Notes: a model not told the origin generated them from the sequence alone. A stretch of 56,887 bases of DNA from Candidatus Kaiserbacteria bacterium RIFCSPLOWO2_01_FULL_50_24 (GCA_001783335.1 MFLU01000015.1:1-56887); one strand, 5' to 3'. Counted from the first letter of the stretch, positions 54,638 through 56,887 are shown. Numbers and translations are program-made.

Positions 54638-54891
54638 GTTAGAGGTTCTTAACGAGTGACAACGAATTTAGAAACTCTTATCGTGTCTAGCGAGCGGCAT
54701 CGCGAAAACTTGTTTTCATGATCCGCGAGCGAAGACACGATATGCCTTTGGCATACACCCCGTGAAATCCTCGCCGAAGGCGAGGAGCCGCAAAGCGGCA
54801 TTTCGCTGGGGTCACGTGTGGTTAGCTCACTGCAATTCATATCAACACTCAAAAATAAAATATAGCGCGCAGTATACCATACCGCGTGTGA

Positions 54892-55925
54892 TTAGGAGAA
54901 TTCCAACATTTTCTGCCGTAGTTTCTTCGCATTCCCATGCCCCAGTAGCCCAACATACGACTGTACGATCTGGTTATCCTCTTCAAGCCCAGTAGCGCGC
55001 TTCAACATCCGTCGCTTTGTAGTCGTCCGCAGTACGCGGTGCCGCGGAAAGTGCACCCAGCCGAGAAAATCCACACCACTCGCGAATGTTTTGATAAACA
55101 CCTTATCCGGATGCAATTCAAGTTTCAGTTGTTCGTGCAAAAATATGGCGATACGCCGACGCATTGACTCGAGTAGTTGTTTGTCATGTGAGAGAACAAC
55201 AAAATCGTCTGCATAACGAATGTAGTATTTCGCTTTCAGTGTGTGTTTTGCGAATTGGTCAAACTCGTTCATGTAGACATTGACGAGCAGTTGCGAGGTA
55301 AGATTGCCGAGCGGGAGCCCTGTGCTTAATGTGCCAGAATTGAAACTTCCAACAATTCCCGCAATGAGCTGAAGCGTGCGCCTGTCGGAAATGTAGTGCC
55401 GAATAATACTCATGAGAATCGTGTGATCAATGGAAGCAAAAAACTTGCGGATATCGCACTTTAAGATATGACAAGTTTTTTTGTTGTTCCGTGACACTCT
55501 AAACGCAAACTGCCGGAAACGATTCATCGCCCTATGCGTGCCCTTCCCCTTCCTGCACGAATACGAGTCGGCAATGAACGTGCGATCAAAGAATGGGTAA
55601 AGTATGCGGTGGAGCGCGTGGTGTACCACACGGTCGCGCGCCATCGCCTTGTGGATATCGCGCGGTTTCGGATCGCTTATCCTGAAGTGCTTGTACGCGC
55701 CATGCTTGTATGTGCCCGCCGCGAGTTCGCGATGGAGCGCGAGAATGTTGTCCATAAGCCGATGCTGAAACTCCTGCACGTCATCTTTGCCGCGCTTTCC
55801 TCGCACGAATTCTTTCCACGCCGCGAGCAAGTTTTCAACAGAAATGATATCCTCGTATGTATGAGCGAGCAGAATTCTCTTAGAGTAACCCCCCCCCCCG
55901 ACGGAATTTGCCTGTTATAGAACAT
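54892..55925 (-). CDS. DGR reverse transcriptase, with ATG (55925) and RT body in different frames across a G11 tract
   Basis: 'LPLGNLTSQLLVNVY' (DGR hallmark [IL]GxxxSQ) and 'YIRYADDFVVL'. The body frame is open back to 55913 but has no ATG/GTG/TTG before the TTG at 55830, which cuts the conserved 'EDIISVENLLAAW' helix. Confidence 0.85.
55889..55899. repeat. C11 (G11 on the RT strand) homopolymer
   Basis: Counted directly: 'taaCCCCCCCCCCCgacgg'. It lies inside the RT 5' coding region and 9 nt upstream of the avd TTG. Confidence 0.95.
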
Positions 55926-56264
55926 ATCAAGAAACTATACCGCGCATGGCTGCCAATTCGTCGCAATATGCCACGCAGTGAGCGTTTCGGAATCGGCGGA
56001 AAGATTGATGTGCTTCTTCTCGATGTGGCAGAATTGTTGCGTTTCGCTTCATTCTCTCGCACGGATGAGAAAGTCCCGCTACTAGGCAGGGCCATTGTGA
56101 AAATAGATTCCCTACGGTTTTTTGTTCAGTTAGCGTGGGAGACCAAACTCATCCCAGATAAACAATTTGAAGAGCTTGCTATTCTTATTGAAGAGATCGG
56201 CCGTATGACGGGCGGCTGGCATAAAGGACTTCTATCGAAAGCCCCACTCAACAAAGAGCGTTGA
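55908..56264 (+). CDS. avd: DGR accessory variability determinant (Avd, four-helix-bundle protein)
   Basis: 'MPRSERFGIGGKID', 'LRFFVQLAWETKLI', 'IEEIGRMTGGWHKG' (Avd-type iGkmlGGW). TTG start, 118 aa. Confidence 0.75.
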   Translation: MPVIEHIKKLYRAWLPIRRNMPRSERFGIGGKIDVLLLDVAELLRFASFSRTDEKVPLLGRAIVKIDSLRFFVQLAWETKLIPDKQFEELAILIEEIGRMTGGWHKGLLSKAPLNKER

Positions 56265-56282: not shown

Positions 56283-56394
56283 AGCGGGAAACGAACTCGT
56301 TGCCTGCATTCCAGCTGTTCGGGTTGGAGGGCGAGTAGGCCTCGACGTTCCAGCCATCGTCGTTCCAGTTGGCGTTCAGAGCCCAGAGCACGTT
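56283..56394 (-). repeat. DGR template repeat (TR)
   Basis: 112 nt matching 56713-56824. It has 25 A on the minus strand, 18 of them substituted in the VR. It reads AAC-rich codons (NANWNDDGWNVEAY..NSWNAGNE). Confidence 0.85.
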
Positions 56395-56632: not shown

Positions 56633-56685
56633 AAAAAATCGACCCTTCAATTTCCTGCCAAAGTGGCAAAAAATCAAAGGGTCGA
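56633..56685 (-). terminator. Branched hairpin plus T6 downstream of the DGR target gene
   Basis: Outer stem 'tcgaccctt'/'aagggtcga', inner 'tgcca-aag-tggca', T6 on the minus strand. It starts about 25 nt after the target stop. Confidence 0.5.
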
Positions 56686-56710: not shown

Positions 56711-56887
56711 TCAGCGGGAAACGAACCCGCGGCCTGCATCCCAGCGGAACGGGTTGGAGGGCGAGAGGGCCTCGACGAACCAGCCACCGCCGCTCCAGAG
56801 GGCGCCCAGAGCCCAGAGCACGCTGTTGCCGTCGTTGTCCTTGACGAGGACGTAACCAGCCGTCCACGTAAGATTGCCGACAGCTTG
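56711..56887 (-). CDS. DGR target protein, C-terminal 58 aa only (5' end outside window)
   Basis: The minus frame from the window edge reads 'QAVGNLTWTAGYVLVKDNDGNSVLWALGALWSGGGWFVEALSPSNPFRWDAGRGFVSR*'. The '..GFV/R' ending is typical of CLec/FGE-like DGR targets. Confidence 0.75.
   Translation of the reverse strand, partial: QAVGNLTWTAGYVLVKDNDGNSVLWALGALWSGGGWFVEALSPSNPFRWDAGRGFVSR
56713..56824 (-). repeat. DGR variable repeat (VR) at the C-terminus of the target gene
   Basis: Same register as the TR. There are 19 mismatches, 18 at TR adenines. Confidence 0.85.

Follow-up and report, generated by a model that had tools for sequence, protein, structure and literature searches.

The window, by which we mean the whole 56,887-base stretch of DNA analysed here (G+C content, 51%), contains a diversity-generating retroelement (DGR) comprising a reverse transcriptase (RT), the accessory variability determinant (Avd), and a template region (TR)/variable region (VR) pair with adenine-directed differences. 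These elements are arranged in the order target gene with VR, TR, avd (reversed), and RT (Table 1). The RT matches Pfam RVT_1 (7.5e-22), finds its best NCBIfam similarity in a group II RT, under that model's cutoff, and carries LPLGNLTSQ, the [ILV]GxxxSQ motif of DGR and group-II-intron-like RTs. Its homologues number in the thousands, are mostly from Patescibacteria, and are annotated as members of the RT/maturase family, with 56-73% identity among those examined. Avd matches Pfam bAvd PF22296 (1e-14) and NCBIfam DivGenRetAVD NF033474 (8e-20; 71.1 bits versus a cutoff of 80), its residues 1-106 corresponding to profile positions 1-104. Alignment of TR with VR places 20 of 26 aligned mismatches at TR adenines, and within the core of the alignment every mismatch but one (T>C) does so.

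Several further elements surround these genes. The hairpin just 3′ of the target gene resembles a terminator; if it acts as one, TR would need a promoter of its own within the ~240-nt spacer. On the minus strand, the segment between the RT stop and a SET-domain gene (54640-54895) is predicted to form a strongly structured RNA (MFE -93.4 kcal/mol; z = -4.8 versus shuffles) that matches no Rfam family; it also contains all three substitutions (54762, 54745, and 54724) that separate the window from the near-identical contig L002 described below. Scans of the window with Rfam (gathering threshold) and for tRNAs returned no matches, and a sigma-70 consensus scan around the avd/RT junction returned one site, at chance level.

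Table 1. Features of the DGR locus in the window, and the perfect repeats found at the equivalent junction in six orthologous loci
Feature	Location	Strand	Basis or remark
G11 homopolymer (C11 on + strand), simple-sequence repeat	55889..55899	-	sequence read directly
RT body frame (DGR reverse transcriptase)	54892..55914	-	stop 54892-54894; Pfam RVT_1
TTG 55830, first canonical start in RT body frame at G11	55828..55830	-	truncated 312-aa P0001
ATG 55925, frame-A start	55923..55925	-	joins RT body at 12 or 9 G
TTG 55930, frame-B start	55928..55930	-	joins RT body at 10 or 13 G
avd, divergent from RT	55908..56264	+	Pfam bAvd, NCBIfam DivGenRetAVD
avd-sense ATG, antisense of RT His codon	55861..55863	+	extended Avd MSEQNSLRVTPPPRRNLPVIEH.. 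only at 12 or 9 C
TR	56283..56391	-	TR/VR alignment
VR, 3′ end of target gene	56713..56821	-	TR/VR alignment
DGR target gene, 3′ part	56711..56887	-	full gene 210 aa in L001; window ends inside gene
Terminator-like hairpin, 20-bp stem then T run	56640..56684	-	just 3′ of target gene stop
(TGATTGC)x11.1	L036		replaces G run
(CTGG)x10.2	L031		replaces G run
(AG)x16	L063		replaces G run
(TTCG)x9	L071		replaces G run
(TGGC)x6	L081		replaces G run
(TGGC)x8	L082		replaces G run

The 5′ end of avd shares 18 bp with the RT leader around a run of 11 G residues, the sole G/C run longer than 7 in the window (the next longest being G7 and C6). The initial annotation, made from the sequence alone, had claimed that this run puts the RT start codon out of frame and lies close to the divergent avd TTG; both statements are borne out, with 8 bases separating the run from that TTG at 55908. 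The RT body frame is closed 5′ by TAA 55917-55915, downstream of which it reads QANSVGGGGYSKRILLAHTYEDIISVENLLAAWKEF (- strand), and it is open to its stop at 54892. Its openness had thus been described correctly, and its upstream limit, given earlier as 55913, is 55914. The first ATG, GTG, or TTG in this frame is TTG 55830, as previously proposed, which encodes the second L of ENLL, so that at G11 the RT body has none of these codons ahead of its conserved N-terminal subdomain.

From ATG 55925, translation would read MFYNRQIPSGGG into the G run in a frame differing from that of the RT body. Gain of one G or loss of two fuses this ATG to the RT body, giving a continuous RT of 344 or 343 aa, respectively. 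The initial annotation had recognized this junction and had missed a second one: the third frame, entered from TTG 55930 or, further 5′, from ATG 56095 (a long ORF), reads ..LICSITGKFRRGGG and becomes continuous with the RT body when the run has 10 or 13 G. Because the RT leader has a start codon in two frames, two of the three length classes (12/9 G and 10/13 G) are ON, and the only OFF class is the one with 11 G. ATT (55875-55873) and CTG (55872-55870) codons do lie in the RT body frame at G11, and NCBI annotates the G11 form from the ATT (MLLAHTYEDIIS, P0121), which makes leaky, weak initiation at this length possible.

On the opposite strand, ORF 55534-55920 (+) holds the avd-sense ATG 55861-55863. 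This ATG joins the Avd frame at the same length class (12/9) at which ATG 55925 joins the RT, so that both long forms would be ON together. ATGs homologous to 55861 are the sole possible Avd starts in many sister loci, and we infer that the corresponding N-terminal extension of Avd may be used in the window as well.

To locate the N-terminus of the RT, we compared orthologues from a scan restricted to one genome per species (80 loci), a comparison that the initial annotation had recommended. No orthologue in this species-level scan starts its RT at the equivalent of TTG 55830, a position whose use by orthologues the initial annotation had named as grounds for refutation; where a start exists between the run and the RT body, it always lies 6-12 codons ahead of the Y of YEDIIS. 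The 60 best database matches (65-73% identical) display two kinds of leader 5′ of a conserved GGG. The first, M[FL]N[DN].Q..P.GG.., corresponds to the ATG frame of the window, and the second, MRS..GK..RGGG or ..CSITGK.RWGGG, to its TTG 55930 frame; the remaining best matches start M.R.QF.H.YEDIIS just past the Gly run. Orthologues P0017, P0026, and P0035 likewise read M[FL]N[DN].Q..P.GG from an ATG homologous to 55925, and the tract-less locus L018 reads MFNDRKIHLLHNYEDIIS straight from that ATG.

Structural considerations agree with this placement. In the RT alignment, Y24, I27, S29, N32, and L33 are invariant, and all are lost with a start at TTG 55830. In the AlphaFold model, residues 21-40 are predicted with high confidence (pLDDT ~96), whereas residues 1-14, comprising the leader and Gly run, fall below 50 and appear disordered. 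A TTG 55830 start cuts through helix 30-41 of the N-terminal subdomain (pLDDT ~96), matching the earlier claim that a conserved N-terminal helix would be severed. The Bordetella phage RT uses its N-terminal extension subdomain to contact both Avd and the template:primer duplex (bioRxiv 10.1101/2023.10.23.563531). A protein started at TTG 55830 would accordingly lack conserved structure that is modelled as ordered, and the RT leader looks like a dispensable tail. Since the leader is modelled as disordered and residues 21-40 as ordered, either leader frame would be tolerated and the truncation would not.

Strain-level sequences were gathered by exact-protein look-ups, and 4 of about 14 OFF-type contigs of the same strain were compared at the DNA level. 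The G11 form is present in four assemblies, namely the window, L001 (ENA), L003 (NCBI GCA_001783485.1), and L004 (JGI), the latter three being 100% identical to the window across 4.1-5.0 kb. This recurrence indicates that G11 is not a one-off assembly slip, with the qualification that the four contigs are not certainly independent, as several assemblies may re-assemble the same Rifle aquifer runs. Eight contigs carry the truncated 312-aa product, whose 90% cluster comprises seven members. A further contig, L002 (ENA ERZ4903055), is 99.92% identical to the window and carries G10 together with an intact 345-aa RT (P0125), called from the equivalent of TTG 55930 (MICSITGKFRRGGGYSKRILL..). Over 5 kb, L002 differs from the window by three substitutions, all downstream of the RT, and by one indel, the G10 itself; the G run is the sole indel in this interval even though A/T 7- and 8-mers are present. 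Metagenome contig scans using the flanks with a variable gap, or a 38-nt downstream flank, returned no matches.

Three assemblies break or contain an N gap inside the VR-bearing target gene (window end at 56887; L003:1948-1989; L002 start). Such breaks are expected if VR is heterogeneous in the population and are an indirect hint of recent DGR activity; for other lineages, the 700-nt flanks retrieved stop short of VR.

The same variation recurs in other lineages. Each of the 10 RT clusters examined (at least 90% identity) includes both frame-A and frame-B leaders as well as truncated N-termini on the same RT bodies, with called RT lengths inside single clusters of, for example, 353/345/313, 349/320, 358/347/307, and 372/364/335 aa. 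At the DNA level, the first cluster includes runs of n=9 (three contigs), n=10 (one), and n=8 (one) between identical flanks, with 0-1 mismatch in 950 nt of RT, and the second includes n=9 versus n=10 (three contigs) with 0 mismatches. Altogether, run-length differences accompanied by 0-3 substitutions per 1-5 kb were found as 11 versus 10, as 8/9/10, and as 9/10, in three lineages.

A few sequences in this comparison call for separate mention. The "OFF" form P0157, from a Kaiserbacteria cluster, was rejected as a tract variant: its run has 10 G, and the frame break comes from a 2-nt difference adjoining a scaffold gap, probably an assembly artefact. P0143, in the cluster of P0027, reads ..RWGWGYS.. 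for ..RWGGGYS.. through a G-to-T change that interrupts the run and could be either a locked-ON allele or a sequencing error. Scaffold gaps lie at or near the repeat in L070, where an N run adjoins G10, and in L088, where an N run is located ~25 nt upstream of the tract; both are consistent with length heterogeneity or with sequencing difficulty at the run. L090:245-277 differs from L094 by five A-to-N differences in ~30 nt, located ~430 nt 5′ of the RT start where TR should be, which may represent a TR/VR swap in assembly or a real template change.

The run is conserved far beyond these strains. Among the 73 species-level loci with enough upstream sequence for repeat counts, 61 have a G run of at least 8 (8-14) at the same head-to-head avd/RT junction, and 64 have a run of 7-14 at the homologous position (7 G in 2 loci, 8 in 10, 9 in 17, 10 in 19, 11 in 12, 12 in 2, and 14 in 2; mode, 9-10). 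By comparison, the remaining 415 kb has only 4 G/C runs of at least 8. In six loci that lack the G run, exactly that junction is occupied by other perfect repeats, with units of 2, 4, or 7 nt (Table 1), and the repeat has been lost in some loci, such as L018, or is interrupted, as in L042 (GCGGCGGCGGGG).

This pattern suggests that selection keeps a slippery repeat at the site, conserved or re-invented across orthologues, and not one particular sequence. The variety of repeats at a single position points to hypermutability as the function and speaks against a role as a specific RNA, a Shine-Dalgarno sequence, or a peptide. Two candidate roles for the G run were rejected individually: a Shine-Dalgarno or specific RNA element, because unrelated repeat units replace the run in other loci, and a conserved Gly/Pro linker, because the frame through the run differs among orthologues and is often non-coding for RT.

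Sister loci differ in how the two genes relate to the repeat. In 50 loci, a start codon of the RT itself, mostly ATG (GTG or TTG in six), follows the run. A TAnnnT hexamer, most commonly TAGAAT, stands 0-2 nt past the run in 26 of these 50 own-start loci versus a 5% background, a statistic that is only indicative as the loci are phylogenetically related, and in 16 of the 26 the RT start codon follows exactly 7 nt after the hexamer. This spacing is the predicted geometry of a -10 box with a leaderless transcript. In such own-start loci, the run probably acts on RT promoter spacing, on the avd frame, or on both. The window keeps TACTCT at the place of the hexamer, and its ATT lies 14 nt from the run versus 13 nt for the ATG of own-start loci.

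One orthologous locus, L019, has two further G10 runs (L019:3404-3413 and L019:5253-5262). Behind one of them come a perfect TATAAT, 6 nt, and the start ATG of a secreted, signal-peptide-bearing protein with SGYAWSENTGW repeats, forming the same module; the other ends 12 nt short of the ATG for a second Avd-like protein of the four-helix type. These genomes may thus use poly-G modules more generally for phase variation.

The avd side varies in parallel. At the Leu codon aligned with Avd residue 1, 28 loci have TTG and 25 have a non-start codon (TTA, CTC, CTT, or CTA). The Avd frame of those 25 continues across the C tract, read there as Pro, until it meets an ATG antisense to the RT His codon. 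When 62 loci were classified by both genes, 23 had local starts for both, 26 had a local RT start and a tract-dependent avd (12 in frame, 14 not), 12 had an RT that depended on the tract and an avd that started locally (7 in frame; 5 out of frame, the window among them), and in 1 both genes were tract-dependent and both in frame. Since 23 of the 62 loci have canonical starts for both genes, the repeat is not a purely translational switch everywhere. In the subclade of the window, the spacer is 9 nt shorter and no longer contains the local ATG, so that the RT must be read through the run.

Collectively, these observations support the ON/OFF switch by slipped-strand mispairing that the initial annotation had raised: near-identical contigs carry G10 and G11, the run is present clade-wide, other repeats replace it, and three states coexist in 10 clusters. 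We therefore favor, with a probability of roughly 0.6, the reading that G11 is one copy of a contingency locus whose slippage toggles the RT and which is conserved in a large DGR clade of Patescibacteria (CPR), a group of ultra-small bacteria. G11 lies in a 5′ ORF and exceeds the instability threshold for simple-sequence repeats (about 7-8 or more for G/C), and at the sequence level a change in its length moves the RT between in-frame and out-of-frame states.

Under the proposed mechanism, a hypermutable repeat would be kept at the head-to-head avd/RT junction, here inside the 5′ coding leader of the RT, where replication slippage would add or remove G residues. With 12 or 9 G, ATG 55925 would initiate RT translation, and with 10 or 13 G, TTG 55930 would do so; at 11 G the RT body would follow a stop without a usable start, and RT output would be lost or reduced to a trickle. 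As cDNA synthesis needs the RT-Avd complex, adenine-directed hypermutation of VR would then be OFF until the next slip. From these sequence comparisons we infer that frequent, reversible slippage within populations produces the length differences, that no RT protein is made at G11, and that DGR activity would follow the switch.

A broader version of this model is more tentative, and we would put it slightly short of an even chance. It holds that a clade-wide, bidirectional switch in the overlapping 5′ ends of avd and RT sets heritable, reversible states of the whole DGR, acting through the RT frame here and through RT promoter spacing and/or the Avd frame elsewhere, which would make CPR hypermutation a stochastic, bet-hedged trait in which one hypermutable site would govern another.

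Transcriptional slippage or recoding, in which RNA polymerase or the ribosome slips on the long G run and by which every DNA length would give some in-frame mRNA and hence a low constant RT level or two leader isoforms with no heritable switch, appears unlikely. A run of 8-14 is long enough for it, and the RT body is perfectly conserved in strains with OFF lengths. ON/OFF states are spread nearly at random across species, as if DNA length were free of frame selection; this spread fits fast switching and equally fits RNA polymerase slippage with an irrelevant DNA length. However, DNA length itself varies between near-identical genomes and is not fixed, and repeats with 2-, 4-, and 7-nt units, on which RNA polymerase slippage is not known, occupy the same site. 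The multi-nucleotide repeats and DNA differences argue against RNA slippage, and homopolymer loci may still use it; to our knowledge, documented bacterial transcriptional slippage involves A/T runs and not G/C runs.

The RT might instead be made at G11 from the non-canonical ATT 55875 or CTG 55872, with the run serving in a 5′ UTR or promoter to tune RT and/or avd transcription. The annotation of P0121 from the ATT, the hexamers past the run in sister loci together with TACTCT and ATT at like spacing in the window, and the L019 module of G10, TATAAT, 6 nt, and ATG would all fit such an arrangement. The Ile at the ATT is, however, simply the conserved I of R-I-Q-F, and relatives in the subclade have ATG-initiated leaders that cross the run in either of two frames. 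As start codons, ATT and CTG are very weak, and leaderless mRNAs are known to need AUG. We regard initiation at these codons as very unlikely to account for the locus.

Homopolymer sequencing or assembly error, with a true length of 10 or 12 and an ordinary intact RT, is also highly improbable here. Long G runs are error-prone, one assembly of the strain gives 10, and there are assembly gaps directly at the run (L070) or close to it (L088), yet G11 occurs in four assemblies from three sources with no other indel in 5 kb, and the three-state pattern appears in 10 of 10 clusters with several contigs agreeing per length. Error would also leave both the conservation of the repeat and its replacement by other repeat types unexplained. 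As a general explanation it is unlikely; for any single contig it is possible. Finally, a decaying DGR, in which the frameshift is a fixed inactivating mutation and the RT a pseudogene, is hardly credible: G11 does dominate the available assemblies of the strain, but the 1-kb RT frame has no other lesions, the RT body is identical in ON (G10) and OFF strains, Avd, TR, and VR are intact, and the breaks inside the VR gene in three assemblies are as expected for a heterogeneous VR.

The slippage switch, if true, would have consequences for both DGR biology and annotation. Little is understood of what activates, restrains, or silences DGR mutagenesis, and surveys describe many DGRs as apparently inactive, without explanation (PMC8144416); a conserved repeat gating RT or Avd would be a simple, testable control. 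Sub-populations with the diversifier ON would explore target variants, and OFF cells would keep a working variant and be spared the cost of mutagenesis. On the practical side, gene callers truncate or mis-start these RTs, as seen in the NCBI ATT start and in calls of 288-374 aa for the same gene inside single clusters, so that catalogues of CPR DGRs will misjudge intact RTs unless the repeat is considered.

Simple-repeat phase variation and DGRs are each well known. Our literature search, which covered work other than the main CPR-DGR paper (Paul et al. 2017), found no paper linking DGRs to simple-sequence repeats or phase variation. The large DGR surveys searched name neither homopolymers nor phase variation, and their single reference to a frame shift concerns one inside a VR sequence.

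The closest parallels are poly-G/C contingency loci in 5′ coding regions, such as those of Neisseria meningitidis (hmbR/hpuA) and Campylobacter jejuni. In the accounts of such loci within PMC3786947 and PMC8355987, a +/-1 change in the length of an 8-13 nt G/C run near the 5′ end of an ORF shifts the frame ON or OFF, and consensus genomes of close strains differ solely at the run, as here. The present locus differs in that the gated gene encodes a targeted-hypermutation enzyme and not a surface antigen or receptor, two of three frames are ON, and the host is an uncultured CPR bacterium in which switching is putative.

Repeats also occur in promoter regions, some of them divergent, as in the TA repeats of Haemophilus influenzae hifA/hifB and the promoter-spacer tracts of Neisseria porA/opc and Bordetella fim. 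The Bordetella promoter tracts are treated in PMC1891110. As at hifA/hifB, one repeat lies between divergent genes, and in sister loci the run adjoins a -10-like hexamer and would set the -35/-10 spacing. In contrast to those systems, the genes here overlap at their 5′ ends, the repeat lies inside the coding sequence of at least one gene, and the promoter is putative.

Phasevarions, built on phase-variable mod methyltransferases, share a repeat in an enzyme ORF and an ON/OFF state with population-wide phenotypic effects (PMC3230613). Their output is epigenetic control of a regulon, whereas here it would be mutational diversification of one target gene. With the DGR of Bordetella phage BPP-1, the locus shares the N-terminal extension subdomain of the RT, Avd, adenine-specific TR/VR differences, and a VR that forms the C-terminal end of the target. 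The avd gene of BPP-1 precedes TR and shares the orientation of brt, and no repeat is known there. The present locus, unlike BPP-1, is ordered target, TR, avd (reversed), and RT, with the repeat at the avd/RT junction.
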